This document shows positions 3 through 62,531 of a stretch of DNA of 64,000 bases, piece after piece. The DNA lies in contig DAINBB010000003.1 of the NCBI GenBank assembly GCA_036733165.1, positions 7,546-71,545 of the forward strand, in the 5' to 3' direction. A program made the position numbers and the translations under genes. Position 1 is the stretch's first letter, and each line of letters starts with the position of its first letter. The notes under the pieces were generated by a model. It did no database searches, had not been told where the DNA came from, and saw only the letters and a program-made list of their open reading frames with translations. This DNA comes from Halobacteria archaeon. Lineage in GTDB: Archaea > Methanobacteriota_B > Thermococci > Methanofastidiosales > NM3.

Positions 3-1934
3 GGCGTCGAACTTGACGAGAACGGGTTCTTCAAGGAGCGCGACCTGATATCCTGCCCCATGGAGAGCTCAAGGCCGGGAGTGTTCCTTTCGGGCTGTTC
101 ACAGTCACCTAAGGATATCCCCGATTCTGTTGCCCAGGGTTCTGCGGCAGCTGCGATGGTCATGGACATATTGCCAAAGCCCGTCATCAAGCCTGTCGAG
201 CAGTCCCCTGAAAAGGCCATCAAGGCCGACGATGAACCAAAGATAGGCGTGTTCATCTGCATGTGCGGTAAGAACATAGCAGGTTACATGGATGTCAACA
301 AGCTCTCGGAGTACGCATTGTCATTGCCAAATGTCAAGCATGCGGAGACATTGATGTTCGCATGTTCACAGGATGCCCAGGGCAAGATCAAGAAGGCTAT
401 CAAGGACAACGACCTCAACCGTGTCGTCGTTGCGGCATGCACGCCAAGGACCCATGAGGCCCTCTTCCAGGACACGATAAGGGAAGTTGGAATCAACAAG
501 TTCCTCTTCGAGATGGCAAACATCAGGAATCAGTGCTCATGGGTGCATTCGAACGACCCAGAGGTCGCTCTTCAGAAGGCCAAGGAGCTTGTGAATATGT
601 CTGTCGCCAAGGCGCGTCTGCTGGAATCGTTGGACCAGGGTCAGATAGAGGTCGAGGAATCGGCCATGGTGATAGGCGGCGGTGTATCTGGCATGAGCGC
701 TGCACTGGCACTGGCGGAATCCGGTATCAAGGTCTATCTCGTTGAGAAAAAGGACAAGCTTGGAGGAATGTTGAACGAACTCACTACACTGTATCCTTCA
801 GACATCAAGGCCCAGGACGTAGTCGACAAGCTTGCAGACGAGATTTCCAAGAACAAGAACATCGATGTGATGATAAACACGGTCATTAAGAACATATCTG
901 GTTACATCGGCAACTTTGAGGTGGAGCTCAAGGAAGTTGATCCGATGTACAAGAACTTTGAGGAGCCATTCAAGGTCGGGACTGTAATCATCGCCACCGG
1001 AGCTGAGCTCATCGACCCCAAGGGAATATACGGGTATGGCGACAGCGACAAGATAATCACCCAGCAAGAACTGGAGAAGATGCTCAAGGAGGGCACGTTC
1101 CCCAAGGATGCCAAAGAGGTAATATTCATATCTTGCGCCGGAGCCAGGGAAGACGAGGGCAGGACCTACTGTTGCAGGGTAGGATGCGGCACGATGCTCA
1201 GGAACGCAAAGGCCCTCAAGGAACTTGACCCCGACCTGAACCTGTTCGTCCTCTTCAGGGACATGAGGTCCTTCGGTAAGAAAGAGGAGGAATACTATGT
1301 CGACGTTCAGGAAAAATACGGTGTCAAATTCCTTAGGTACGAGAAGGACAACAAGCCTCAGGTGACCGTCGAGAACGGAGATGTGAAGCTTCTTGTGCAC
1401 GACATGCTTCTGGGTGAGGACCTTGAGTTCAAGCCCGATATGGTCGTGCTCACAACACCGACAGAGGGACAGGCAGAGGACGTTGCAATGATGCTCAAGG
1501 TGCCAACGTCAAAGAACGGTGGGTTCTTCATGGAGGCCCATGCCAAGATAAGACCGCTAGACTTCGCCACTGATGGTGTCTATGTCTGCGGTAGTGCACA
1601 CTTCCCCAAGGGAGTTGCAGACTCGATCGCGCAGGCGGTCGGCGCGGCATCAAGGGCGGCGGTCCCGATTTTCGAGAGGATCGTCAAGGGAGAGGCCATC
1701 GTCAGCGATGTTGACCAGGAAAAATGCATCGGTTGCGGTATATGCGTCAGCATCTGTCCATACGGTGCAATGGCACTAACAGAGGGAAAGTCCCAGTCCA
1801 ACAAGGCTCTCTGCAAGGGGTGCGGCACATGCGCTTCGGCCTGCCCGATGTTCGCGATAAAGATGCCACACTTCACTGACGGCCAGATATTCGAACAGAT
1901 CAAGGCTGCGACCGAGAAGCCCGGAGGTGCATGA
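3..1934 (+). CDS. hdrA: HdrA-like flavoprotein, 5'-partial, apparent tandem fusion. The C-terminal part of an upstream HdrA-like FAD domain runs in frame into a complete HdrA (N-terminal Cys4 domain, FAD domain, C-terminal 2x[4Fe-4S] ferredoxin).
   Basis: Frame is open from window position 3 with no stop. Residues [26 protein letters not shown] match the HdrA FAD-domain C-terminal motif. This is followed by [19 protein letters not shown], which matches the N-terminus of the second HdrA at 3858 (MIGVFICFCGQNIGGYINV). Also present: [17 protein letters not shown] dinucleotide fold, two CxxCxxCxxxCP motifs near the C-terminus, and ATGA stop/start overlap with the next gene. Confidence 0.8.
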
Positions 1935-2686
1935 AAATGGCAGAAGAAAAGTTTGAACCTAAGATAGTGGCTTTCACATGCAACTGGTGTTCATATGCAG
2001 GTGCAGACCTGGCGGGTACATCGCGTATCCAATATGCGCCGAACATGCGCATCATCCGTGTCATGTGCTCTGGCAGGGTCGAACCTACCTTTATCCTGGA
2101 AGCCCTAAAAGAGGGTGCCGACGGCGTATGCGTTCTCGGCTGCCACTTCGGGGACTGCCACTACATAAGCGGGAACTATGAGGCCAACAGGAGAATGGAG
2201 CTTCTGAAGAAGCTCTTCCAGGACCTAGGCATCGATGAGAGAAGGATAATGATCGAATGGGTCTCTGCCTCTGAAGGGGAGAGATTCTCAGAGGTCGTCA
2301 ACAACTTCACGGAGCAGATAAGGGAACTTGGACCATTGCCCCCAGATTACAATGACAAGCTCGAGCTGATAAGGGGTGCCCTTGAGGGAGAGAGGCTCAG
2401 GATCGTCCTGGGTTCCACCAAGAGGGCGTTCGAAGGCGGCAGTGTAGAGGAGGAAAGGTACAATACGGCCCTCCACGACATCGCGAAGGACGAAATCGAC
2501 AGGGTCAAGATGTTCAAGGTCCTTGACAGGGAGGCTCGTCCGCTCACGGTTCCAGAGTTCTCTGAAATGACCGGAATTCCCAAGATGACGGTATGGAGAC
2601 ACGTACTCTCACTCACAAGGAAGAACCTCCTTGAGGCAATTGGTGAGGAGCATCAATACATGCTGTACCAAAGGAGGGGTGTGTAA
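1931..2686 (+). CDS. mvhD: MvhD-like (methyl-viologen-reducing hydrogenase delta subunit) domain protein with an approximately 110-aa C-terminal extension resembling a winged helix-turn-helix. The likely true start is ATG 1937 (RBS GGAGGTG 1924-1930).
   Basis: [19 protein letters not shown]...[36 protein letters not shown] is the canonical MvhD Cys pattern. The C-terminal [31 protein letters not shown] looks like an HTH recognition helix plus wing. Confidence 0.8.
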
Positions 2687-3861
2687 TGGTCATCAAGGAC
2701 GAGGAGATGGACTTCGAGTTCTCAAAGAAACTTGAGAAGGAGCTTGAGAACAGCTTTGCGAAGTGTTTCCAGTGCGGTACCTGCACAGCCAGGTGCCCCG
2801 GGGGCGTCATCTCCGATTACAGGACAAGAAAGTTCATGAGAATGGCCCAATTGGGTCTAAAGGACAAGATACTGGGCTCAGAAGACCTATGGAACTGCAC
2901 GACATGTTCCACCTGCAAGATCCTTTGCCCTTGGGAAGTAGACCCCCTATCCACGATCTTGAAGCTGAGAAGGGAAGCGGTCAAGGCCGGCAAGGAGAAC
3001 AAGAAGCATGATCCCCTAGTGAAGAGCCTTATCAACTATGACAACCCCTGGTTGCAACCAAGGGCGGCAAGGAAGAAATGGTACAAGGGTCTCGATGTCG
3101 TTGACCTCTCAAAGGAACCCGGCAAGGCGGATGTGCTCTATTACGTTGGATGCACGGCCACCTTCGACAAGAGGCTGTGGGGCATGTCAAGATCTGTGGT
3201 CAAGGTCCTCAACAAGGCAGGCATCACCGTAGGTGTGCTTGGCAAGGATGAGAAGTGCTGCGGAGGTACTGTCCGCGGTGTGGGTCATCCAGAGATCTTT
3301 GAAGAGCTGGCGAAACAGAATGTAGACGATCTCAACAACGCCGGCGTGGACACTATAATATTCTCATGTCCCGGATGTCTCAACACGATAAAGAACGCAT
3401 ACAAGGCCGAGAAGATAGGGGAAATAAAACCCAGGCTCATTCATGTCGTTGAATATGTGGACGAGCTTCTCAAGGAAGGCAAGCTGAAACTTGACAAGGA
3501 TGTCAAGAGGATAGTCACATACCATGACCCATGCCACCTTGGAAAGCACTGTGAGGTTTTCGATGCCCCGAGGGATATCCTCAAGGCCATCCCTGGACTT
3601 GACTTCAGGGAGATGAAGTTTGTAAGAAAGGATTCCTGGTGTTGCGGTGCCGGCGGAGGCGTGAAGACTGCATTCCCCGAGCGCGCGACAGAACTGGCGG
3701 TCAATCGTCTGGATCAGGCGGAGGAGACGGAAGCTGACACGATATGCAGCGCATGCTCGTTCTGCTATCAGAATCTTTTGGACGGTCTGGTGGCCAAGAA
3801 GGATTCCAAGATGGAGATGAAAGATATTATGGAACTTGTAGCGGAGGCGATTGAGGAATGA
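2686..3861 (+). CDS. hdrD: HdrD-like iron-sulfur/CCG-domain oxidoreductase (HdrC-like 2x[4Fe-4S] ferredoxin fused to an HdrB-like tandem CCG domain)
   Basis: CFQCGTCTARCP and CTTCSTCKILCP ferredoxin motifs. Two CCG domains (…GCTATFD…KCCGGTV… and …HDPCHLGKHC…WCCGAGGGV). TAATG overlap with mvhD, and RBS AAGGAGGGG upstream. Confidence 0.8.
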   Translation: MVIKDEEMDFEFSKKLEKELENSFAKCFQCGTCTARCPGGVISDYRTRKFMRMAQLGLKDKILGSEDLWNCTTCSTCKILCPWEVDPLSTILKLRREAVKAGKENKKHDPLVKSLINYDNPWLQPRAARKKWYKGLDVVDLSKEPGKADVLYYVGCTATFDKRLWGMSRSVVKVLNKAGITVGVLGKDEKCCGGTVRGVGHPEIFEELAKQNVDDLNNAGVDTIIFSCPGCLNTIKNAYKAEKIGEIKPRLIHVVEYVDELLKEGKLKLDKDVKRIVTYHDPCHLGKHCEVFDAPRDILKAIPGLDFREMKFVRKDSWCCGAGGGVKTAFPERATELAVNRLDQAEETEADTICSACSFCYQNLLDGLVAKKDSKMEMKDIMELVAEAIEE

Positions 3862-6140
3862 TTGGCGTATTCATATGTTTCTGCGGACAGAACATTGGTG
3901 GTTACATCAATGTCCCAGAGCTCACAGACTACTTCAATAACTGGAGAGATGACGTTGTTGCCTTCAACACAACATTCCTTTGCTCCGAGATCGGTCAGGA
4001 TTTGATCAAGGACAAGATAGAGGAATTGAACCTTGAGGCAGTGGTAATTGCTTCATGTTCTCCTAAGCACCATGGTGGGATCTTCCAGGCCTGCATTGGA
4101 CAGAAGATGAACCAGTACAGGTGGGAGTTTGCCAACATCAGGGAGCAGTGTGCTTGGGTGACACCCAACAAGAAGAATGCCACCGAGAAGGCCAAGGCCA
4201 TCATAGCCGGCGCCGTCGAGAAGGCCAGATTGTTGCAGGACATCGGTTCAACAAGGGTGCCTGTGACCAAGGACGTCCTTGTCATAGGCGGAGGTATCGC
4301 TGGTATGCACGGTTCCTTGGAACTCACTGACAAGGGATTCCATGTGCACATGGTGGAAAAACAGGAGACCATCGGCGGACACATGGTACAGTTCGACAGG
4401 GTATTTCCGACCGATGACTGTGCAATGTGTACGAGCTCGCCTATTCTTGCCGACGTAGCAATGGACCCACTGATAGACATATACTCCCTTTCCGAGGTCA
4501 TAGAGGTCCGAGGAAGGCCTGGAGAGTATATTGTGAAGATCAGAAGAAATCCAAGATATGTCGATGAGTCTAAGTGTACGGCCTGCGGTGACTGTACCAC
4601 GCACTGCCCAGTCGAGGCCTGGAGCGAATGGCGCTATGGAATGGCGGTCAGGTCTGCGATAGACAAGCCGCTTGCACAGGCTGTGCCGCTCAAGAACAGG
4701 ATATACAATGACACATGTATCAGGTGCGGGACCTGTGAGAACGTCTGTAAGGCAGATGCGGTTCTATATAATCAGGAACCCGAGGAGTTCGAGATAACCG
4801 TCGGTGCGATAATGATATCGACAGGCTACGACATTCTTGACCTTTCAAACACAGAATATCATCAGGAGCATCCCAATGTCATATCCCATCTGCAACTTGA
4901 GGCGCTGAAGGTGCCATCTGGTCCAACGGCCGGAGAGATTCTGAGGCCATCGGACGGTAAGATGCCGAAGCACCTCGTGTTCGTACTATGTGCGGGGTCC
5001 AGGGACAGGAGACACAACGTATACTGTTCCAAGGTGTGCTGCATGTACACCACCAAGAACGCAAGGCTGATCAAGGCGGAGAATCCCAACATGAAGATCA
5101 CCATTTGCTATATCGACGTCCGTGCTGCAGGAAGGGGATATGAGGAATACTTTGACAAGGCCCGTGAGATGGGCATAAACTATGTCAGAGGCAATGTGTC
5201 CGAGATAGTTCCCAACGGGGAGGACCTCATAGTGAGGCTCGAGGACACCTTCACGAGCGAGCCATTGGAGCTTGACGCTGACCTTGTTGTCCTGTCAAGC
5301 GGAATGGTGCCTTCGCAAGGTACCAGGGACATGTCCGAAGTGATACATGTGGTATCTGGCGCAGACAAGTTCCTTGCGCCGGTGCACGTGAAGATCGCGC
5401 CTGTCGACACTGCCAACACCGGTGTCTACATCGCGGGTACCGTTGAGGCACCCAAACCTATCCAGGAGTCAATCACGGACGCGGGTCTCGTGGCATCCAG
5501 GATAGCCACGTTCCTTAAGGATCCCGAGATAGAGATCGATCTGAAGACCTCGAAGATAAACGCCGACGTATGTATAAAGTGCGGCACATGCGCGGACAAC
5601 TGTGTCTACGATGCCATTGACACCACCGGTGAGGACTTCAAGGTGCTTGATGTGTCATGCCAGGCATGCGGTAAGTGCTCGGTGATATGTCCGACAGGGG
5701 CCATTGACCTTCAGTTGTACACCGAGGACCAGCTCATCAAACAGGTCGATGGTATACTGGAGCAGGACCCGGACTCGATAATAGGATACTGCTGTTACCA
5801 ATGCGGTTACAACGCCGCTGACCTTGCAGGTACTGCAAAGGCTTTCATAAACCCCAAGGTCAAGGTCGTATTGGTGCCCTGTTCAGGACGTGTGACCATA
5901 CAGCACATGCTCTATCCGTTCTTCAAGGGCGCGAAGGGCGTCTTCCTCGCAGCATGCCTCGAGGGCCAGTGCCATTACATAGACGGCAATCTGCAGGCCA
6001 AGGAGAAGGTCAAGCTGGCGAAGAAATCACTGGACCTGATGGGTGTTGGTGGACGTAAGCTGAATCTGTTCAACATGTCCTCGGCAGAAGGTCCTAAGTT
6101 TGTCGCTGCTGCTAAAAGGATGGTGGAAATATGTCAGTAG
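3858..6140 (+). CDS. hdrA: HdrA-MvhD fusion protein (HdrA2-type): N-terminal Cys4 domain, FAD domain with an inserted ferredoxin domain, C-terminal ferredoxin, then a fused MvhD domain
   Basis: MIGVFICFCGQNIGGY N-terminal domain; VLVIGGGIAGMHGSLEL FAD fold; four CxxCxxCxxxC(P) motifs; C-terminal YCCYQCGYNAADLAG…VPCSGRV…ACLEGQCHY is MvhD-like. ATGA overlap with the upstream gene. Confidence 0.85.
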   Translation: MIGVFICFCGQNIGGYINVPELTDYFNNWRDDVVAFNTTFLCSEIGQDLIKDKIEELNLEAVVIASCSPKHHGGIFQACIGQKMNQYRWEFANIREQCAWVTPNKKNATEKAKAIIAGAVEKARLLQDIGSTRVPVTKDVLVIGGGIAGMHGSLELTDKGFHVHMVEKQETIGGHMVQFDRVFPTDDCAMCTSSPILADVAMDPLIDIYSLSEVIEVRGRPGEYIVKIRRNPRYVDESKCTACGDCTTHCPVEAWSEWRYGMAVRSAIDKPLAQAVPLKNRIYNDTCIRCGTCENVCKADAVLYNQEPEEFEITVGAIMISTGYDILDLSNTEYHQEHPNVISHLQLEALKVPSGPTAGEILRPSDGKMPKHLVFVLCAGSRDRRHNVYCSKVCCMYTTKNARLIKAENPNMKITICYIDVRAAGRGYEEYFDKAREMGINYVRGNVSEIVPNGEDLIVRLEDTFTSEPLELDADLVVLSSGMVPSQGTRDMSEVIHVVSGADKFLAPVHVKIAPVDTANTGVYIAGTVEAPKPIQESITDAGLVASRIATFLKDPEIEIDLKTSKINADVCIKCGTCADNCVYDAIDTTGEDFKVLDVSCQACGKCSVICPTGAIDLQLYTEDQLIKQVDGILEQDPDSIIGYCCYQCGYNAADLAGTAKAFINPKVKVVLVPCSGRVTIQHMLYPFFKGAKGVFLAACLEGQCHYIDGNLQAKEKVKLAKKSLDLMGVGGRKLNLFNMSSAEGPKFVAAAKRMVEICQ

Positions 6141-8083
6141 ATGAGAAGAAGGAAGAACCTATCCAGGTATCCGGCGGATGCGAGATAGGTGGCGTCTTGG
6201 AATGTGCCACCTGCAAGAGATGTTCGCTTGTCTGTCCGACAGAGCTTAACCTGGAAAAGGTCGTAAGGATCTCAAGATACCTCAGGGACCCGAAAGGATC
6301 CCACAGGAACATCTTCAAGATCACGTCGAAGCTCGCCGGAATGGCGGAGACACAGAGCTGGCTCAAGAACGGCGAGACAGGCACTGACATAGCATACTTC
6401 CCAGGTTGTTCAGCCCTCTTTGACATACTGTTGCAGAGGGACACCAACTACGCTGGTTCCGCCGAGGCGGCCGTGCTCGTATTGAACAAGCTAGGTTTCA
6501 AACCAGAAGTCATCTATGGCTGTTGCGGACATGACCTATATTACTCGGGTGCGCTCGATGAGTTCGAGACCGTCAAGAAAGAGATGATGAAGAAGGTCGA
6601 GGGCAAGAAGATAGTGGTCGGTTGTGCCGAATGCTACCATATGCTCAAGAACGTATATGGCATAGAGGATACGATACCTTTCGCAGAGTTCGTCCTTCAG
6701 CACAATCCGAAGTTCGAAAAGACCGACCTCAAGACCACCTACCACGACCCATGCAGGCTTGGCAGGTACAACAGCGTCTACGATGCTCCAAGGGAACTTC
6801 TGAAGAAGGCATCCGACTTCAGGGAGATGGAGAACATAAGGGAAGAGGCCATATGTTGTTCCGTTTCCGCCTGGCTCAACTGCAACAAGACGGCAAGGGA
6901 GGTCAGATTCAACAGGATCAAGGAAGCGAAGGCGACTGGCGCGGATTACCTTGTGACCGCATGCAACAAGTGTTCCATACATCTCGACTGTGTCCATTAC
7001 GAACTCAACAAGGAAGAGGTCGAGGAGCTCAGCGATATCAAGATAATGGGGCTTGAGGAGGTCGTCGGCTACGCCATGGGTGTCTATGACCCGTTCAAGG
7101 AGGAGAAGTCGTACGAGGTGCCGGAGATCACAGGCAAGTTCCTTGAACCGATCGAGATCGAGAAGGACCTTGAGAGATATATCGACGAGGAACTTGTCGA
7201 AGAGGCGTTCAAGTGCACGTCCTGCAAGAACTGCGCCATTGTATGCCCCGTGCATTACGATACCCCCGGAATGATGATGGAGGTATTCAGGCCGGAGCTT
7301 GTAAAGCGCGGCCACGGTCCTGAGAAACACGCGAAGATAGAGGGCGTCCTAAGGAAGACCGGAAATGCTTTCGGTGCGGAGGAAGGCGTAAAGACCAAAC
7401 TAAATCCAAAGGCAAAGTATGTATACTTCCCGGGATGCGTTGCTCAGTTCAGGCGCGATGACGTTTTCCAGGCAACGACCAAGATCTTGGACCTTCTCAA
7501 GATCGACTATGAGATACCAGAAGGGCTCGTATGTTGCGGTTCCGTCCTGAAGAGGACAGGTCACCCGATGGACTTCCTGATCGAGCAGAACATGAAGCTG
7601 CTCAAGGGCAAGCCCATAATCACATCCTGTTCAGGTTGTTATGCAACCTTGAAGAAGGACTATGAGGGCCTTGAGGTGTATCACATAACAGATATCATCA
7701 AGGAGAATCTGGACAAGCTTCCGCTGAAGGAGGTCAAGAAGAAGGTCATGTACCACGATCCTTGCCACCTTGGAAGGAAGTTCAGTTACTACGACATCCC
7801 AAGGGAGATAATCGAGGCCATTCCGGGCATTGAGCTCGTACCCTTCGACAAGGAGAAGGAGAACGCGCAATGTTGTGGTGCAGGTGGCGGGGTGAAGTCT
7901 GCGAAGCCAGACATCGCAAACAAACTTGCACAGAAGAAGATGGACGAGGCCAAGGAAAAGAAGGCCGACATGGTCGTATCATCATGTCCCTTCTGTGAGC
8001 TCAATCTTCAGGACAACAACAACGACATACCGGTGGTCGACATCCTGAATCTCCTTATGGAATCACTGGGGGTGGAAGCATGA
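6131..8083 (+). CDS. Internally duplicated HdrD-like protein: two consecutive [ferredoxin + CCG + CCG] units in one polypeptide
   Basis: Unit 1: CATCKRCSLVCP; YFPGC…CCGHD; HDPCRLG…ICCSVSAW. Unit 2: FKCTSCKNCAIVCP; YFPGC…VCCGS; HDPCHLGRKF…QCCGAGGGV. Confidence 0.75.
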   Translation: MSVDEKKEEPIQVSGGCEIGGVLECATCKRCSLVCPTELNLEKVVRISRYLRDPKGSHRNIFKITSKLAGMAETQSWLKNGETGTDIAYFPGCSALFDILLQRDTNYAGSAEAAVLVLNKLGFKPEVIYGCCGHDLYYSGALDEFETVKKEMMKKVEGKKIVVGCAECYHMLKNVYGIEDTIPFAEFVLQHNPKFEKTDLKTTYHDPCRLGRYNSVYDAPRELLKKASDFREMENIREEAICCSVSAWLNCNKTAREVRFNRIKEAKATGADYLVTACNKCSIHLDCVHYELNKEEVEELSDIKIMGLEEVVGYAMGVYDPFKEEKSYEVPEITGKFLEPIEIEKDLERYIDEELVEEAFKCTSCKNCAIVCPVHYDTPGMMMEVFRPELVKRGHGPEKHAKIEGVLRKTGNAFGAEEGVKTKLNPKAKYVYFPGCVAQFRRDDVFQATTKILDLLKIDYEIPEGLVCCGSVLKRTGHPMDFLIEQNMKLLKGKPIITSCSGCYATLKKDYEGLEVYHITDIIKENLDKLPLKEVKKKVMYHDPCHLGRKFSYYDIPREIIEAIPGIELVPFDKEKENAQCCGAGGGVKSAKPDIANKLAQKKMDEAKEKKADMVVSSCPFCELNLQDNNNDIPVVDILNLLMESLGVEA

Positions 8084-8706
8084 GCGAAGCCGAGACAAAG
8101 AAGGTGGATCAGATGGAAGAGGACCCGTACGAACTGGAGAACTTCCACAAGATCCTTGAGGACAGCAAGATCCTCAACTGCGTCCAATGCGGGAAATGCA
8201 CCGGAGGCTGCCCTGCAGGAAGGGACTCCAGGATAAGGATAAGGGAGCTTATCCATCTTGCCCACGAGGGTCATGACATCAAGGACTGCAAGGAGCTATG
8301 GCTTTGCACAACATGCTACAACTGCCAGGAAAGGTGTCCCAAGGGCGTTGACACGACAGAGGCCATCATTTCCCTGAGAAACAGGGCCATAAGAAAGGGC
8401 GACCACAACTTCCCGGAGATCCACGTCACCGCGATCACGTCCTTGCGTGATCAGGCCGATGGATTCCCGCTCAGCCCCGATGTTGAGTCTATCAGGTCTG
8501 TCATCGGACTTCCGAAACATCCGCACGACCTGGCCCATGACCCAGAGGGTCTCAAGAAGTTCCAGGAACTCATGGACGACCTTGACATCGTGGGACTAAT
8601 CGAGAAGCAATGTGGCGACAGCAAGCCATGGAAGTACGTGGACATCGATTACAAGCCACCAGTTGCCAGAGGCGCCAAGAAGAAGGAGGCTGAGTCAGAT
8701 GAGTGA
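8080..8706 (+). CDS. hdrC: HdrC-like subunit (2x[4Fe-4S] ferredoxin)
   Basis: CVQCGKCTGGCPAG and CTTCYNCQERCPKGVD motifs. ATGA overlap with the upstream gene. Confidence 0.8.
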   Translation: MSEAETKKVDQMEEDPYELENFHKILEDSKILNCVQCGKCTGGCPAGRDSRIRIRELIHLAHEGHDIKDCKELWLCTTCYNCQERCPKGVDTTEAIISLRNRAIRKGDHNFPEIHVTAITSLRDQADGFPLSPDVESIRSVIGLPKHPHDLAHDPEGLKKFQELMDDLDIVGLIEKQCGDSKPWKYVDIDYKPPVARGAKKKEAESDE

Positions 8707-55910: not shown

Positions 55911-56159
55911 TTTTGCTTTTTTCTTCAATTGAATTTTAGTATTTACAATGTAGTAATTGCATTATTTCCTTATTTTTTTTATTTTACAGTAAAACCACTG
56001 CAAAAAGTATTTAAAGGAAAAGTTACATTAAATGCCTATATAGCTATACGGAGTGTTGGAGCGTGAACATGTTCGAAAAAGTAATCCAATTAGTTAATGG
56101 TATATTTACACACGATTCTGATACAGATTTTGTCAATGATAAGTATGGTTGGAGGTTTA

Positions 56160-59100
56160 ATGATGCGACCTGTATATAAGAAGGGAATTTCGATATTATT
56201 TGGAATATTGATCGTTATGAGCCTCGTCTACATCAACGTCGGCTCCACCCGTGCGGCATCTGCCATCACTGGCGCTACTGATGCCGTTTGGTACGACACG
56301 GACGGAAATGGGGTCTTCGATGCTGGAGAGGGGATTGGGAACATCAATGTTTATCTGGACAATTCAGGGGTGGTAGTTGCAACAACGGATGCCAACGGTT
56401 CCTTCCCTGATGTGTTCGCAACCGCTGATTCAGACCTTGATTGGGATGGAGAGCACTATCTAACATTCAAGGCTGATGGTTTCAGGACTGTGACATACAA
56501 TGTCAGCAACGTTGCTGGGGTATATGCTCTTCCGGCAGGGTCGGTCCAGATGGTCACCCAGGACAGCATTTACGGAAGGGTGGTCGACGACGACGGACAA
56601 CCGGTGGCGGGCATCACCATCGAGGCATTGGTGTATGGCACAGGCATCGTGGCCACCGATGTTGTCGGGGGAACGGCCCAGACGGTCACTGATCAGTACG
56701 GTAATTATGTTATAAAGGGATTGCCGGCGGCCACTTACGACATAAGGTCCAAGAAGGCCGAGTACATAACCCAGATCCTGACCGGTGTGAAGGTCGTTTA
56801 CGGCAAGACAACGGAGAACGTCAACTTCACGATGGTGCCTAACTACGGGTCCATCACGGGTCATGTGACAGACGGCGCGACGCCGATACAGGGCGCTGTC
56901 GTCTCCATACCAGGCCTTGGACTATCCGCCGTCACGGACTCGAACGGACAGTACACCATAACGGATGTAATGCCGGGCAGCTACACGATGATATGTGAGA
57001 AGGACGGTTACAAGATATGTGTTCTATACTATAATGACACTGGATCGTCCTATGCTTGCAACCCTGCCGACTATTCGCCATTCGTCCAACCAGGTCCGTC
57101 CGTGACACCTGTCTCTGCAGACTTCAACCTGGAGCCTGAACCGCTGACACCGGTGAATGGATACATCTCAGGTCTCCTCACTGATGAGGACGGGACCCCG
57201 ATAGAATGCGCATATGTGACAATTCCGGGGCTGGGAATGGAAGTGTGCACTGACAAGGGCGGCTACTACATATTCGAGGAAGTTCCCAACGGGGAGTACG
57301 ATGTGTTGGCCCAGGACCCCAATCCAACCACGGGGACCTTGGAACACAAGTCGGCGAAGGCGAGAATTGATGTGATACAGGGCGAGAACTCAGATGCCGA
57401 CTTTTCACTGGACAACAACACGGGTTTCATCGTTGGACAGATATATGATAAGGATGCATTGCCCGTCAGCGGCGCGTCTGTGACCATACCGAACTCCACA
57501 ATATCCTCACTTACCGACCTGAACGGCTGGTATGCCCTTGAGGATGTCGATGTGTGCAGGTATTCCGTATATGACTACACTGCGGAAACGATCACCTACG
57601 TAGTGGCCAATGTTGTCGTAAAGGCATCAAATTCGGACTACAACTCCAACACGCTGATAGTGGAGCCCATACCTGCGAACGGTTCGTACTATAATACATA
57701 TAATATTAATATATTCAAGAAAACTGGCGTCATCAAGGGACAGGTCTATGAAGTAGGGACCGGACAGCCTATCGAGAACGCTAGGGTCAGGGTCTACGGC
57801 AGGGAGGCCATCACCGACGAGAGTGGCGTTTACGAGTTCGTAGGCGTCCCTGTGGGAAGTTACACTGTCGTCGCAGGTGAGGGCCCTGAACAGACATACA
57901 CCGAGACGACCTATGACATAGTCATAGCGACCAACGTGACCGTAGGATCAAATGCGCAGACGATGAAGAACTTCTATCTCCCTGACGACACCAGCTCGCT
58001 CTACGGATACGTATCTGGCATATTATACGATGATGTCAACGGGAGCTCGGGCTTCTCTGAAGGCGAGGGTCTCTCTGGCGTCACCGTTGAGATACCTGGA
58101 TACTCCATTGTGGAGACCGATGACTTCGGATTCTATATAGTCTCAGCCGATGCCGGTGACCATTATCAGGTCATATACGGCGACGACTACGAGTGGGTGA
58201 ACAACGGGCTTGTCACATTCACAAGCGATGTTGAGGATCCGGGCAACGACCTTGAACTTGTCAGGAAGACCGGAGAGCTTATAGGAAACGTTAGCGAGGA
58301 CGGCGCGCCTGTCGAGAGTGCCGAGCTGTGGGTTCCCCAATATGACAACGATTGGGAAGAGGGGTCCACATCGGTAGTACAGGTGACATCCGACGCATAT
58401 GGTAACTACGCCTTCGCAGATTCCTATTCATTGGAGAAGGGCAGACATCTTCTCGTAGTCCAGAGATGGGACGACGGAAACATGTCATTCGAGTTCGACT
58501 TATCATTCGTCAACATAGCATCGACCGTTACCAAGAACGTGTCCCTAACACGTGAGACGGGACGCGTCGAGGGTTACGCATGGGACGACCTCGATGGCGA
58601 TGGCCTCAAGGACGTTAGCGAGCCATACCTTCCGGACGTGGAAGTGTCTCTCTCGAAGGTTTACTCGACGATGACAGACAGCACGGGTTACTACACGATA
58701 TTGGACGTGCCTGTCACCTTGGACAGGTCGACCACACATCCGACACCCGCATACGAGATAAACAGGTACACCGGCATAGCCTACCTTACAGGTTATGACA
58801 CCGAGACCTACGTCATCGATCCGCCTGTGGCTGCCGATCCGGAGATATACGATCACACGAGCATTGCCACAGTAGAATACGTGGACTGCAACAACATAGC
58901 GATATTTGAGGACATATCACTCTCAGATGTCACGACAAACATCGACTATCCCTTGGACAAGGCCGACCCTCTGCCAGTGACAGGGTCCGTGTCGGGCTAT
59001 GTGAACCTTGACATGAATCTGATAAATGCAGAGGCCGAGGTCTGGATAGAGGGCACGAACATGAACACATGGTCGGACATCGAAGGATTCTGGATAATCC

Positions 59101-62100
59101 TGGACGTGTCCCCTGACAACTATGCGATACAGGCCGGAAAGCCCAACTACGTGTCCCAGATACAGGCGAACGTGCCGATAATAGAGGGATACGAGAGTGA
59201 GAACATAGACTTCTCCCTGGAGAAGGACGGTTTCATATATGGTACCGTCTTTGAGGACATAGACCACGATGGGATAAAGGACGCGACAGACGTCCCGATA
59301 CAGGGCGCTGTGGTCACCATCGCTGGCAAACAGGTCTACACTGACTCCAATGGAGAGTTCATCATAGACGACGTCTATGCCAACGCCCCCTACAACGGGT
59401 ACACAGTGACGGCAACGAAGCAGAACTACACGATGGACGTCGAGTATGATGTGGAGGTCATACACGCCGATCCAAACGGCACAGAGGTCAACTTCCTCCT
59501 TGAGAAGTATGAAGGATTCTTCATAGGCAAGGTATCTGACCACTCCACCATGGATGGCATTGCGAACATTGATGTCTATGCCATGGACGATCTGATCACC
59601 AACAACACCGAGACGGGAACGACGGACGACGCAGGTTACTATGTGATCGAGGCCAACAGGGGCACATACACGCTCCAGGCCCCCATGGAACCAAACGCGA
59701 CCGACTATGTCACCAAGGAGATCTACGACGCTTCCCTCGGCGGGTACTCGATAACCAGGGAGAACTTCGTGCTGTGGGACGAGACGACAATGCCTGACAA
59801 CAATGTGTTCGGCATCGTTTACCGTGATGACAATTCAAACTCGACCTATGATGACGGAGAGGAGATCGGTGGCGTCCAGGTGTCCATACCGGGCCTTGGC
59901 ATGACAGTGATCAGCGCCACGGACCTGACGGACCCGGACGGGACGCCGAACTCTGGGGACGAGTACAACTACATATTCATGGATGTCCCGAACAACGGCT
60001 ATCATTACACCGTCACTGCAAAGATGGCCATCCCAGGAACATCGCCTACCCAGTACATAATCGAGTACATAGTGAATGTCGAACCTTCGACAACGGTCCA
60101 GTGGAACATAGGGATGGAATGGCCTCCGACGAGCCCGTACGACTCGTGGATAGAGGGCATAGTGTTCTGGGATGAGAACGGCAACGGCACGGTCGACGAG
60201 AACGAGAGACTGGCCGATATGGACGTTTACATACCAGGGTCATCCGTCGACAACGAGGTCGCCACGGCATTCCTGACGGCCGTTACGGACTCCACGGGAT
60301 ACTACATCATAGATGACATCCCTTCAAGGATAGATGACGTGTCAGTGACATGCACGGTCCTTGCAGGGGAGCCAAGTGCCACCGCAATCTATGAGATTGG
60401 GATCCAGAGGAATCTCCCGATCCAGTCAGGACTGGGCACATGGATAGACTTCCCGCTCGTGAGGACGACATCGTACACCTCGGCATACATCTTTGGAGAG
60501 GTGTACTTCGATGCCGATGACTCTGGCACATACGACGTTGATGATACTCCCTACACCGAGGGCATACTCAATGCCACACTCACAATAGGTTCGGACACGC
60601 AGACGACCGACAGCTTCGGTTTCTACATATTCGACGGGCTCACGGCGAACCAGACATATCTGGTAAACGTCACCGCAAACGGTTATGAGGACCACAACGA
60701 GTATGAGACCGCCAAACTCGGTTACAACGCGAAGGTGAACTTCTCAATGACAAAGGAGGCCAACTCCATATCTGGCTTCGTCTTCGAAGACGTCAATGAG
60801 AACGGTATACTGGACGCGGGCGACAAGATAATCAACGCCAAGATAACCGCGGTCAAGGACGGTGGCGGAAACTATGAGGCTTACACGGACGCCACAGGTT
60901 TCTACCTGCTTCCAAATCTGCCGGTTGGCGACTATGACATAGTGTGCACGCAGATCGTCAGCGGTCTTGAGCTTCCGGAATACCAGGACTGGACGTATCT
61001 TGACAATCCGGTGACCATCACCGCAGGCAACGCGGCCACGGTGGACATCCCGATGGCAAGGTACTATGTCGATGTCGACGGAACTGTCACGGATTCGGAC
61101 ACGTCGATGGCAATAGTGAACGTTACAGTGGCTTGGTACTCTCCAGATGACTTCGTAACGCCTAGATATATAGCACTTACAGACCTTTACGGAGATTGGA
61201 GCACCAGCGCCAACCCTGGCTCGGATGATGACTGGAACCATGCTGACCTTGATGGCGACGGAATTGTCGACCCAGACGAGGTCGGCGTACCTGTAGGCAC
61301 ATGGTACGTGGTATTCTCCGCAACAGGATACAACACCACTTCAAAGTGGGTGGTGCTGGACTATGATGACTATCCGGGACCAATAACGATCGACATTGAG
61401 CTTGATCCGACATCGGCCGATGTCGGCACCCTGGAAGGTTCCGTGACCAACAATAATGGCGGCACACCGATAGAGAACGCCACGATCACGGCAACGAACC
61501 AGACCACGCTTGACATATTTGCCATACAGAGCCTGGCCGACGGCAGCTACTCGCTAGTGGTGCCGGAGGGAACATACGATATAGTGTGCTCCAGGGTCGG
61601 ATTCGTCAGCGAGACTGTGACAAATGTCGTTGTGGGAATAGGCGCCACCGTCACCAACGACTTTGGCCTTGACCCGGCCGGAGGACTTGGCGACATCGTA
61701 GTGAACGTTGAGGACGAAAGCATGAATCCGCTCGACGATGTGCTCGTGACGGTATGGTACCAGAGCCCGACATCGAATCTGTTCGAGATCATCGTGGATG
61801 GCCTCACGACCGCTGGAACGATCACGTTCGTGGACGTGCCGGAAGGCACGTACTATGTATGTGCATCCGACAACGACAACGACAGGATAATGCAGACCGA
61901 GGAAGTGGTCCTCGCTGCAAATGCCACAGAGACAGTGGACTTCACGCTTGTTGACGGAACATCATCGACGATAACGCTTGACGGAACGACATCGCAGTGG
62001 TACCTGCTTTCGCTGCCGGTACTGGTCGAGGACGATACCTTCTGGCCGGCACTGCTATACGCAAGCGGTATAGACCTGACGGATTGGGACATGATAGCTT

Positions 62101-62531
62101 CATGGAGCAATACGACCGACGCCTATGAATACTATGACATGACGCTTTCGAGGACCACGGAGTACTGGCTTGTAAGGGACCCGTCCCTGACATACGAACC
62201 GGGCGTGTGGATCCACATGGAGGCCGGAACATACAATCTCAAGGTAGTGGGCACTGAGGAGACGAGTGTGCAGTACACTCTGCCCGGAGGCCACTGGTCG
62301 CTCGTTGGCTACGCGTTGACAGCAGATGGCAACCCGATCGCGACGGCGCTTGAGCAGACTCCTGAGGACTCGGTGAATCTCATGTGGACATACGACATAC
62401 CACCTACGGCGGCAGAGTTGTATGACCCAAGGGGTAGATTCGTACCTCCAGACTTCACCACGTTCGACATATGGCATGCCTACTGGGTCTATGTGGACTA
62501 TGACTGCACATTGACAATATCCTCCCCATGA
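56160..62531 (+). CDS. Giant secreted surface protein (about 2,120 aa) of about 18 tandem CarboxypepD_reg-like / SdrD-B-like Ca-binding beta-sandwich repeats, a distinct approximately 190-aa C-terminal domain, and no membrane anchor
   Basis: Signal peptide after MMRPVYKKGISILFGILIVMSLVYINVGSTRAASA. Recurring G-x-V-x-D-x-x-G-x-P-I-x-G-A-x-V-x-I-P-G motifs and DxDxDG Ca-sites (DDLDGDGLKD, DIDHDGIKD, DLDGDGIVDPDE). RBS GGAGGT 56151-56156. Confidence 0.8.
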   Translation: MMRPVYKKGISILFGILIVMSLVYINVGSTRAASAITGATDAVWYDTDGNGVFDAGEGIGNINVYLDNSGVVVATTDANGSFPDVFATADSDLDWDGEHYLTFKADGFRTVTYNVSNVAGVYALPAGSVQMVTQDSIYGRVVDDDGQPVAGITIEALVYGTGIVATDVVGGTAQTVTDQYGNYVIKGLPAATYDIRSKKAEYITQILTGVKVVYGKTTENVNFTMVPNYGSITGHVTDGATPIQGAVVSIPGLGLSAVTDSNGQYTITDVMPGSYTMICEKDGYKICVLYYNDTGSSYACNPADYSPFVQPGPSVTPVSADFNLEPEPLTPVNGYISGLLTDEDGTPIECAYVTIPGLGMEVCTDKGGYYIFEEVPNGEYDVLAQDPNPTTGTLEHKSAKARIDVIQGENSDADFSLDNNTGFIVGQIYDKDALPVSGASVTIPNSTISSLTDLNGWYALEDVDVCRYSVYDYTAETITYVVANVVVKASNSDYNSNTLIVEPIPANGSYYNTYNINIFKKTGVIKGQVYEVGTGQPIENARVRVYGREAITDESGVYEFVGVPVGSYTVVAGEGPEQTYTETTYDIVIATNVTVGSNAQTMKNFYLPDDTSSLYGYVSGILYDDVNGSSGFSEGEGLSGVTVEIPGYSIVETDDFGFYIVSADAGDHYQVIYGDDYEWVNNGLVTFTSDVEDPGNDLELVRKTGELIGNVSEDGAPVESAELWVPQYDNDWEEGSTSVVQVTSDAYGNYAFADSYSLEKGRHLLVVQRWDDGNMSFEFDLSFVNIASTVTKNVSLTRETGRVEGYAWDDLDGDGLKDVSEPYLPDVEVSLSKVYSTMTDSTGYYTILDVPVTLDRSTTHPTPAYEINRYTGIAYLTGYDTETYVIDPPVAADPEIYDHTSIATVEYVDCNNIAIFEDISLSDVTTNIDYPLDKADPLPVTGSVSGYVNLDMNLINAEAEVWIEGTNMNTWSDIEGFWIILDVSPDNYAIQAGKPNYVSQIQANVPIIEGYESENIDFSLEKDGFIYGTVFEDIDHDGIKDATDVPIQGAVVTIAGKQVYTDSNGEFIIDDVYANAPYNGYTVTATKQNYTMDVEYDVEVIHADPNGTEVNFLLEKYEGFFIGKVSDHSTMDGIANIDVYAMDDLITNNTETGTTDDAGYYVIEANRGTYTLQAPMEPNATDYVTKEIYDASLGGYSITRENFVLWDETTMPDNNVFGIVYRDDNSNSTYDDGEEIGGVQVSIPGLGMTVISATDLTDPDGTPNSGDEYNYIFMDVPNNGYHYTVTAKMAIPGTSPTQYIIEYIVNVEPSTTVQWNIGMEWPPTSPYDSWIEGIVFWDENGNGTVDENERLADMDVYIPGSSVDNEVATAFLTAVTDSTGYYIIDDIPSRIDDVSVTCTVLAGEPSATAIYEIGIQRNLPIQSGLGTWIDFPLVRTTSYTSAYIFGEVYFDADDSGTYDVDDTPYTEGILNATLTIGSDTQTTDSFGFYIFDGLTANQTYLVNVTANGYEDHNEYETAKLGYNAKVNFSMTKEANSISGFVFEDVNENGILDAGDKIINAKITAVKDGGGNYEAYTDATGFYLLPNLPVGDYDIVCTQIVSGLELPEYQDWTYLDNPVTITAGNAATVDIPMARYYVDVDGTVTDSDTSMAIVNVTVAWYSPDDFVTPRYIALTDLYGDWSTSANPGSDDDWNHADLDGDGIVDPDEVGVPVGTWYVVFSATGYNTTSKWVVLDYDDYPGPITIDIELDPTSADVGTLEGSVTNNNGGTPIENATITATNQTTLDIFAIQSLADGSYSLVVPEGTYDIVCSRVGFVSETVTNVVVGIGATVTNDFGLDPAGGLGDIVVNVEDESMNPLDDVLVTVWYQSPTSNLFEIIVDGLTTAGTITFVDVPEGTYYVCASDNDNDRIMQTEEVVLAANATETVDFTLVDGTSSTITLDGTTSQWYLLSLPVLVEDDTFWPALLYASGIDLTDWDMIASWSNTTDAYEYYDMTLSRTTEYWLVRDPSLTYEPGVWIHMEAGTYNLKVVGTEETSVQYTLPGGHWSLVGYALTADGNPIATALEQTPEDSVNLMWTYDIPPTAAELYDPRGRFVPPDFTTFDIWHAYWVYVDYDCTLTISSP

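Follow-up and report, generated by a model that had tools for sequence, protein, structure and literature searches.

A long MvhD protein with a C-terminal winged helix, encoded behind a fused-dimer HdrA in an archaeal genome, is probably a BamF-type docking adaptor

We analyzed a gene for a long MvhD protein (251 amino acids) near the start of a 64,000-nucleotide stretch of archaeal DNA (the window; assembly GCA_036733165.1, contig DAINBB010000003.1, positions 7,546 to 71,545). The analysis confirmed that the gene encodes an MvhD domain, a helical linker of ~45 residues and a C-terminal winged helix-turn-helix (wHTH) domain of ~65 residues. Here we describe the domain architecture, fold, conservation and synteny of this protein, together with variants in which its parts are fused to other proteins or split. 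We consider it probable that the protein is a structural adaptor of the type of BamF from the Geobacter class II benzoyl-CoA reductase: its MvhD domain would relay electrons at a fused-dimer HdrA, and the arm formed by linker and wHTH would dock a neighboring module.

The gene starts with ATG, located 5 nt downstream of GGAGGTG. It shares an ATGA with the stop codon of the upstream gene and a TAATG with the start codon of the downstream gene. An identical protein is encoded on metagenome contig Ga0116244_10000231 of the Joint Genome Institute (JGI; 98.7 kb; locus L007). The Pfam family FlpD/MvhD (PF02662) matched residues 12-134 across its entire profile (positions 1-123 of 123), with E=3.3e-57 and 192.3 bits against a cut-off of 22.3 bits. 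Residues 7-137 are 56-60% identical to the MvhD chains of solved structures (5odc_D, 8rvu_F, 7bkb_F and 9sw2_D). These chains comprise 129-141 residues, in line with the length of about 140 residues given for MvhD in an earlier note on this DNA, and they end where the additional sequence begins, so that the window protein extends ~110 residues beyond the canonical length. Five cysteines (C17, C20, C46, C71 and C76, in CxxC, MCSGR and GCHxGDCHY motifs) are invariant across an alignment of 109 sequences and match those of 5odc_D. The window protein thus shares with canonical MvhD/VhuD of the MvhAGD-HdrABC, Fdh-Hdr-Fmd and Elp-Hdr complexes (PDB 5ODC, 7BKB, 8RVU and 9SW2) the five cysteines, the GCHxGDCHY motif and the adjacency to hdrA, whereas the canonical protein stops where the linker begins. 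Note that both CxxC positions are occupied by Cys, not selenocysteine (Sec), in the window protein.

We modeled the full-length protein with AlphaFold2 (AF2), using the 109-sequence alignment. The model reached a predicted local distance difference test score (pLDDT) of 88.3 and a predicted template-modeling score (pTM) of 0.85, the latter indicating a predicted rigid placement of the extension relative to the MvhD core. The N-terminal domain superposes on canonical MvhD at 1.4-2.3 Å. In the linker, helices 140-151, 154-161 and 163-168 are followed by a long helix (174-201), which leads into the wHTH: a one-residue strand (205), helices 207-214 and 218-230, and a beta-hairpin (234-240/243-248). 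The extension modeled by itself adopted the same fold (pLDDT 88). A Foldseek search with this model returned as best match the Zalpha domain of PKZ (4kmf_A; TM 0.86, rmsd 1.5 Å over 63 columns), with further wHTH matches to NolR, PerR, TFE-alpha, CadC, SmtB and MarR, at 1.5-2 Å. With the full-length model, Foldseek retrieved canonical MvhD, then lumazine-synthase-like flavodoxin folds and then Zalpha; a BamF-like chain was not among these matches. The C-terminal region therefore has true wHTH geometry in the predicted structure and is not merely a helical arm.

At the sequence level, the helix-turn-helix families of Pfam stayed below threshold for the window tail alone (HTH_IclR, 19.9-21.2 bits against 22; HTH_24, 16.6-18.1 against 21.9; TrmB, 14.8-16.7 against 25.6). 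Among 35 homologous extensions, PF0610-like_N was found in 20 (best E-value 3e-8), ArsR-type HTH_5 in 19, and HTH_24 and TrmB in 17 each; the best family-level E-values to Pfam families of wHTH transcription factors were 3e-8 to 4e-7. The earlier note had proposed that the 251 residues hold an MvhD domain and a C-terminal wHTH, which the Pfam match, the AF2 model and the Foldseek matches bear out. The note assigned the last ~80 residues to the wHTH; the wHTH covers ~65 residues (185-248), and the helical linker of ~45 residues in front of it had not been set apart.

To determine the genomic context, the window protein and the 1020-residue HdrA encoded upstream of it were compared with all fetched loci by tblastn, and the 27 long-MvhD genes with sufficient upstream DNA were counted. 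In 25 of these 27 loci, the long MvhD directly follows an HdrA-like coding sequence of ~2.9-3.1 kb. A core of four genes (giant HdrA, long MvhD, giant HdrA, short MvhD) recurs in Methanomassiliicoccales, Bathyarchaeota, Hodarchaeota, Promethearchaeia, Dehalococcoidia, and delta- and betaproteobacterial metagenome-assembled genomes (MAGs). This core is variously extended by HdrB/HdrC, FrhB-like, Fer4_22 plus NAD_binding_1, GltD/NfnB-like or MetVF genes. A related arrangement is known from sulfate reducers and acetogens, for example from Desulfobacterium autotrophicum, with its HdrL-MvhD (PMC2702500), and from HdrCBA-MvhD-MetVF clusters, where each large HdrA or HdrL is followed by mvhD, as here; the deltaproteobacterial relative L010 has the order hdrC-hdrB-hdrL (1480 residues)-long mvhD-giant hdrA-mvhD-metV-metF. 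Some of these MvhDs have the wHTH extension, which the HdrL-MvhD literature, PMC2702500 included, does not mention.

In several proteins the extension has been joined to redox modules. A single polypeptide of 1737 residues (P0235) contains HdrA, MvhD (598-720), the extension (730-838) and a GltD/NfnB-like part with Fer4, Fer4_20 and Pyr_redox_2, and in P0184 the extension likewise lies between MvhD and a GltD-like module. Five further proteins (P0153, with 810 residues, P0211, P0245, P0289 and P0198) are fusions of an HdrA C-terminus with MvhD and the extension. At loci L045, L090 and L091, a free-standing long MvhD is followed by a GltD-like gene of the same kind as in the fusions. The genes at L090 and L091 are HdrD-like, giant HdrA, long MvhD and GltD-like, without a BamB or BamGHI operon. 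The opposite arrangement was seen at L088 (3006-3844) and L089 (3141-3895), where a short MvhD (149 and 131 residues, respectively) is followed by a separate open reading frame (ORF) of 130 and 120 residues, consisting of linker and wHTH only. In both cases the overlap with the short mvhD is 4 nt, and the operon slot is the same one, ahead of the second giant hdrA. The split may reflect either a genuine gene fission or a frameshift in the assembly. In all cases in which the context was checked, the extension lay inside an Hdr gene cluster. A domain that can be joined to redox modules at either of its ends, or set free as a small subunit encoded in the operon, behaves like a structural component of the complex.

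We next consider the distribution of the extension. The closest relatives of the window protein are 72-90% identical, several carrying the NCBI label Methanofastidiosa, and relatives at 44-50% identity and more than 90% coverage occur in Methanomassiliicoccales, Thermoplasmata, Bathyarchaeota, Hermodarchaeota and Hodarchaeota. A scan of species-representative genomes with full-length alignment added the archaeal groups Sifarchaeum, Promethearchaeia and Methanophagales, and among bacteria deltaproteobacterial MAGs, Syntrophorhabdus, Syntrophobacteraceae, Dehalococcoidia and a betaproteobacterial MAG. We also searched 1.84 billion cluster representatives (clusters at 50% identity) with a profile built from the extension only. 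It matched 998 proteins at E<=1e-3 and 287 clusters at E<=1e-10, the strong matches falling in Methanofastidiosa, Methanomassiliicoccales, Thermoplasmata, Bathyarchaeia, Asgard archaea, ANME-1, Deltaproteobacteria, Dehalococcoidia and others. The search for homologous fusions thus found the extension kept in orthologs and far beyond them, and the wHTH appears to be an integral and ancient part of this MvhD subfamily.

By architecture, the 150 best extension matches (of the 287) comprise 78 proteins with MvhD, 64 that consist of the extension only (up to 160 residues), 5 longer proteins without MvhD and 3 multi-wHTH repeat proteins, which match the profile in their wHTH part only. The short extension-only proteins were considered as possible free transcription factors; the two of the 64 with readable context both proved to be split genes in mid-operon. 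Two tandem extension-like modules without MvhD were seen in P0219 (516 residues), P0253 (756 residues) and P0271 (364 residues), P0253 having in addition a C-terminal 4Fe-4S dicluster.

Many of the bacterial long MvhDs had been called ~30 residues short, owing to an in-frame TGA at a conserved Cys. At L045 (7992-8780) the TGA replaces the second Cys of CxxC (FCCTW*GYAAAD), and at L043 (8007-8770) the Cys of GCH (VFG*HLGDCHY). Judged from the sequences, the position of the TGA at conserved cysteines indicates Sec. As a result, gene callers yield hundreds of N-terminally truncated 'MvhD' proteins of 222-236 residues.

Column conservation was used to locate the functional surfaces of the extension. 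The near-invariant positions comprise both arginines of an R-L-R motif (R155 and R157, on the second helix of the linker), E175 in the linker, and E188, R191, K193 and I194 on the long helix, with E188 and R191 belonging to helix 1 (H1) of the wHTH. Within the wHTH core, conservation is found at S206, V207, V221, H224, I225, L228, P244 and Y246, with H224 on helix 3 (H3) reaching 84%. By contrast, hypervariability is seen at the exposed H3 positions 219, 220, 223, 227 and 230, where entropy amounts to 2.4-3.4 bits and charge is mixed, and the wing tip is ~50% acidic, with a mean net charge of -1.3 for the wing. The net charge of helix 3 is +2.7 as a family mean and +4 in the window protein, with R229 and K/R231 at the helix end contributing most of it. 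Net charge discriminates poorly between functions, as helix 3 is basic, the wing acidic and the extension overall slightly acidic (net charge -1.4). The pattern of conservation and charge argues against a conserved DNA-reading surface, though contacts with the DNA backbone would remain compatible with it. The columns revealed no ligand-binding motif or additional Cys/His cluster in the extension.

The closest known parallel is the Bam complex of Geobacter, of which a cryo-electron microscopy structure has been reported (bioRxiv 10.64898/2026.04.10.717634). There, BamE is a fused HdrA dimer, the HdrBC-like BamD belongs with it to an HdrABC-like Bam-FED module, and BamF is an MvhD-homologous adaptor with more than 100 residues over known MvhDs. 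Through its wHTH, BamF contacts BamI and connects the input module with the BamED core, and Sec19 of BamF lies near its cluster (same source). Like BamF of Geobacter metallireducens (BamBCDEFGHI), the window protein is a [2Fe-2S] MvhD adaptor whose extension exceeds 100 residues and includes a wHTH, and the triad of BamE, BamF and BamD has its counterparts in the window in the fused-dimer HdrA, the long MvhD and a 391-residue protein with Fer4 and two CCG domains. In having Sec in CxxC, the deltaproteobacterial long MvhDs resemble BamF, whereas the window protein has Cys. Both BamGHI and the tungsten-containing aldehyde ferredoxin oxidoreductase (AOR) part of the complex, BamBC, are absent from the window operon, so docking partner and substrate differ from those of Bam; no operon like BamB or BamGHI was present beside the long MvhD in the loci examined, that of the window included. 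The window protein is thus probably of the same adaptor type as BamF, but not a benzoyl-CoA reductase subunit. BamF has been described as two Rossmann-fold domains plus a wHTH, whereas a single MvhD domain, the helical linker and the wHTH are predicted for the window protein. When a Sec-type long MvhD from a deltaproteobacterium was used as the seed of a homolog search, 120 close relatives were returned, none of them recognizable as BamF or as a Geobacter protein. That a wHTH can serve as a docking arm is not new, having already been demonstrated structurally for BamF, and automated annotation already flags a helix-turn-helix in some members of the subfamily. In the literature searched on MvhD with helix-turn-helix or winged-helix domains, on C-terminal extensions and on HdrL, a description of the extension was found for BamF only, and none for archaeal MvhDs.

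How might the long MvhD work? We propose that a cytoplasmic, flavin-dependent electron-bifurcating complex of the HdrA-based kind, built around the fused-dimer HdrA, contains the long MvhD as a stoichiometric adaptor subunit. The MvhD domain, carrying the [2Fe-2S] relay cluster, would bind the fused-dimer HdrA encoded just upstream, and the helical linker and wHTH would form a rigid protein-protein docking arm that keeps a second module within electron-transfer range. The fusion proteins suggest that the module joined by the adaptor is the product of the gene immediately downstream; the docked module here is most likely encoded by one of the downstream genes. Candidate partners in the window operon are the HdrC/B-like protein and the HdrA-MvhD fusion, both encoded downstream; in other lineages this role would fall to another giant HdrA or to an NAD(P)H module of the GltD/NfnB type.

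Several points weigh against this proposal. The extension is clearly homologous, as judged by sequence, to DNA-binding wHTH domains of the ArsR/TrmB type, and its basic helix 3 with the conserved R229 and K/R231 would allow contact with nucleic acids. From the observations above we infer that the wHTH binds to protein and not to DNA, and likewise which partner it has. The partner module of BamF, the NuoEFG-like BamGHI, is absent from the window operon, so the partner must differ. The proposed homology between the BamF and window extensions was drawn from architecture and context, not from an alignment.

The earlier note had suggested a redox-linked transcription factor or a moonlighting structural subunit. 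In the former case the wHTH would bind operator DNA, for example that of its own operon, either as a redox-linked transcription factor or as part of a dual-function subunit resembling PutA, an enzyme that doubles as a repressor; the redox state of the [2Fe-2S] cluster or Hdr assembly would decide between DNA and enzyme. The true wHTH fold with its homology to the ArsR, TrmB and IclR-N DNA-binding domains and the positive charge of helix 3 speak for such a role, and the automatic annotation by JGI labels some members 'predicted transcriptional regulator'. The extension does share its topology with the ArsR/SmtB, TrmB, IclR-N and PF0610-like factors, but differs from them in its unconserved DNA-reading face, its acidic wing and its Hdr context. 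The positions of H3 that would read bases are the hypervariable ones, and the invariant residues sit in the linker and H1 instead. Furthermore, the domain occurs midway in the 1737-residue redox polypeptide and as a separate mid-operon ORF in both split cases checked, and the synteny with giant HdrA spans archaeal and bacterial phyla, a range over which operators would not stay conserved. A search for operators 5' of the operon detected only AT-rich inverted repeats, partly conserved in the closest relative, and the wHTH of BamF, the relative of solved structure, has protein as its binding partner. A DNA-binding role is therefore unlikely in our estimate. The narrower version, in which a core subunit of an Hdr complex acts as a PutA-like repressor of its own operon gated by the [2Fe-2S] redox state, we regard as more doubtful still; if true, transcription in many anaerobic archaea and bacteria would be coupled directly to the thiol/ferredoxin redox state of the cell.

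A wHTH may also regulate without binding DNA. The winged-helix protein DsrD, which has a Zalpha-like structure, allosterically activates DsrAB, and the extension could by analogy tune how electrons pass through the HdrA module, or serve as a binding site for a small thiol or cofactor. Consistent with this, the best structural matches are Zalpha-type wHTH domains, the well-conserved H224 could bind a ligand or metal, and the free protein of 120-130 residues seen in the split cases resembles a small accessory subunit. The extension lacks a recognizable ligand motif or additional Cys/His cluster, however, and DsrD was not among the Foldseek matches listed. This role, which overlaps heavily with docking to a degree that sequence cannot separate, seems improbable to us. 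We give very little credence to the idea that the tail is an evolutionary relic of a transcription-factor gene once fused to mvhD and now functionless beyond folding. The sub-threshold HTH scores of the window protein alone would fit a relic; against this, the extension is kept in at least 287 clusters at 50% identity from many phyla, has a confidently predicted fold with near-invariant R155, R157, E188 and R191, and persists as a separate ORF when split. Because of the translational coupling within the Hdr operon, the HdrA synteny at 25 of 27 loci, the internal and split occurrences, the position of the conserved residues off the DNA-reading face and the docking role of the wHTH in BamF, we favor a structural subunit over a transcription factor. 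The term 'moonlighting' is unfit for such a subunit, the wHTH being integral to it.

Almost always paired with a fused-dimer HdrA, the long-MvhD subfamily can serve as a simple marker in genomes of uncultured archaea, pointing to bifurcating complexes of the BamE/BamF-like kind. The label 'predicted transcriptional regulator' on long MvhDs is most likely wrong and calls for caution in annotation.

The features of the window that bear on this analysis are listed in the table.

Table. Position of the long MvhD gene, its domains and the other Hdr genes in the window.
Feature	Position	Strand	Basis
Fused-dimer HdrA (BamE-like), 3' two-thirds of a gene for 1020 amino acids	1..1934	+	L007 gene 6392-9454
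Long MvhD gene (MvhD domain, helical linker, wHTH; 251 amino acids)	1931..2686	+	ORF listing, sequence
MvhD/FlpD [2Fe-2S] domain, residues 12-134	1964..2332	+	PF02662, alignment to 5odc_D and 8rvu_F
Helical linker, residues 138-184 (R155-L-R157 near-invariant, G170 position, E175)	2342..2482	+	AF2, column conservation
wHTH, residues 185-248 (H2 207-214, H3 218-230, wing 234-248)	2483..2674	+	AF2, Foldseek, family-level Pfam
Helix 3 ('recognition helix'), residues 218-230	2582..2620	+	Column conservation
HdrC/HdrB fusion (HdrD- or BamD-like), 391 amino acids: 4Fe-4S dicluster and two CCG domains	2686..3861	+	Pfam
HdrA-MvhD fusion, 760 amino acids; second, short MvhD domain (residues 641-757) without extension	3858..6140	+	Pfam
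Four-CCG-domain protein (double HdrB/HdrD-like), 650 amino acids	6131..8083	+	Pfam
HdrC-like 4Fe-4S dicluster protein	8080..8706	+	Pfam
HdrB-like protein, two CCG domains, 301 amino acids	8699..9604	+	Gene call on L007

The Hdr cluster comprises seven genes on one strand, with mostly overlapping stop and start codons. The window begins inside the HdrA gene, so that the ORF of 624 codons at 60..1934 is a truncation artefact and not an HdrA of normal size. The two halves of the 1020-residue HdrA are homologous to each other (E=6e-41), and the protein aligns with solved HdrA chains in three stretches; it is therefore a fused HdrA dimer. The four-CCG protein, which also has one ferredoxin-like motif, is encoded between the HdrA-MvhD fusion and the separate HdrC and HdrB genes, and the operon thus encodes three different CCG-type thiol/disulfide modules. 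For HdrB, the mechanical ORF begins with GTG at 8612 (330 residues) and overlaps hdrC by 95 nt; the start called on L007 is more plausible. Genes for the [NiFe] hydrogenase subunits MvhA and MvhG were not found among the ~26 larger ORFs of the window scanned by Pfam.

Upstream of the fused-dimer hdrA, a leader of ~200 nt (L007 6160-6390 compared with L005 6700-6937) is unusually conserved, given a protein identity of ~80% between the two genomes. It includes ACGAAAACTTTTTAAAT, which resembles a transcription factor B recognition element (BRE) and TATA box, and the block GGAAATCATTTTCTTTTTAYGGGGGAGGGAAAGGTGAA. Rfam gave no credible match to the conserved leader, which could be a structured 5' untranslated region or contain a small ORF. 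A gene for a 252-residue regulator of the HVO_A0261_N/ArsR type (HTH_5) is located on the minus strand of L007 (4727-5485), ~900 bp upstream of the Hdr operon, with a NUDIX gene in between. As a candidate for regulating the operon, its product is more conventional than the tail of the long MvhD. Far downstream in the window, an ORF of 2144 codons (56097-62531) contains many CarboxypepD_reg, SdrD_B and SpaA-type Ig-like repeats and presumably encodes a giant surface protein.

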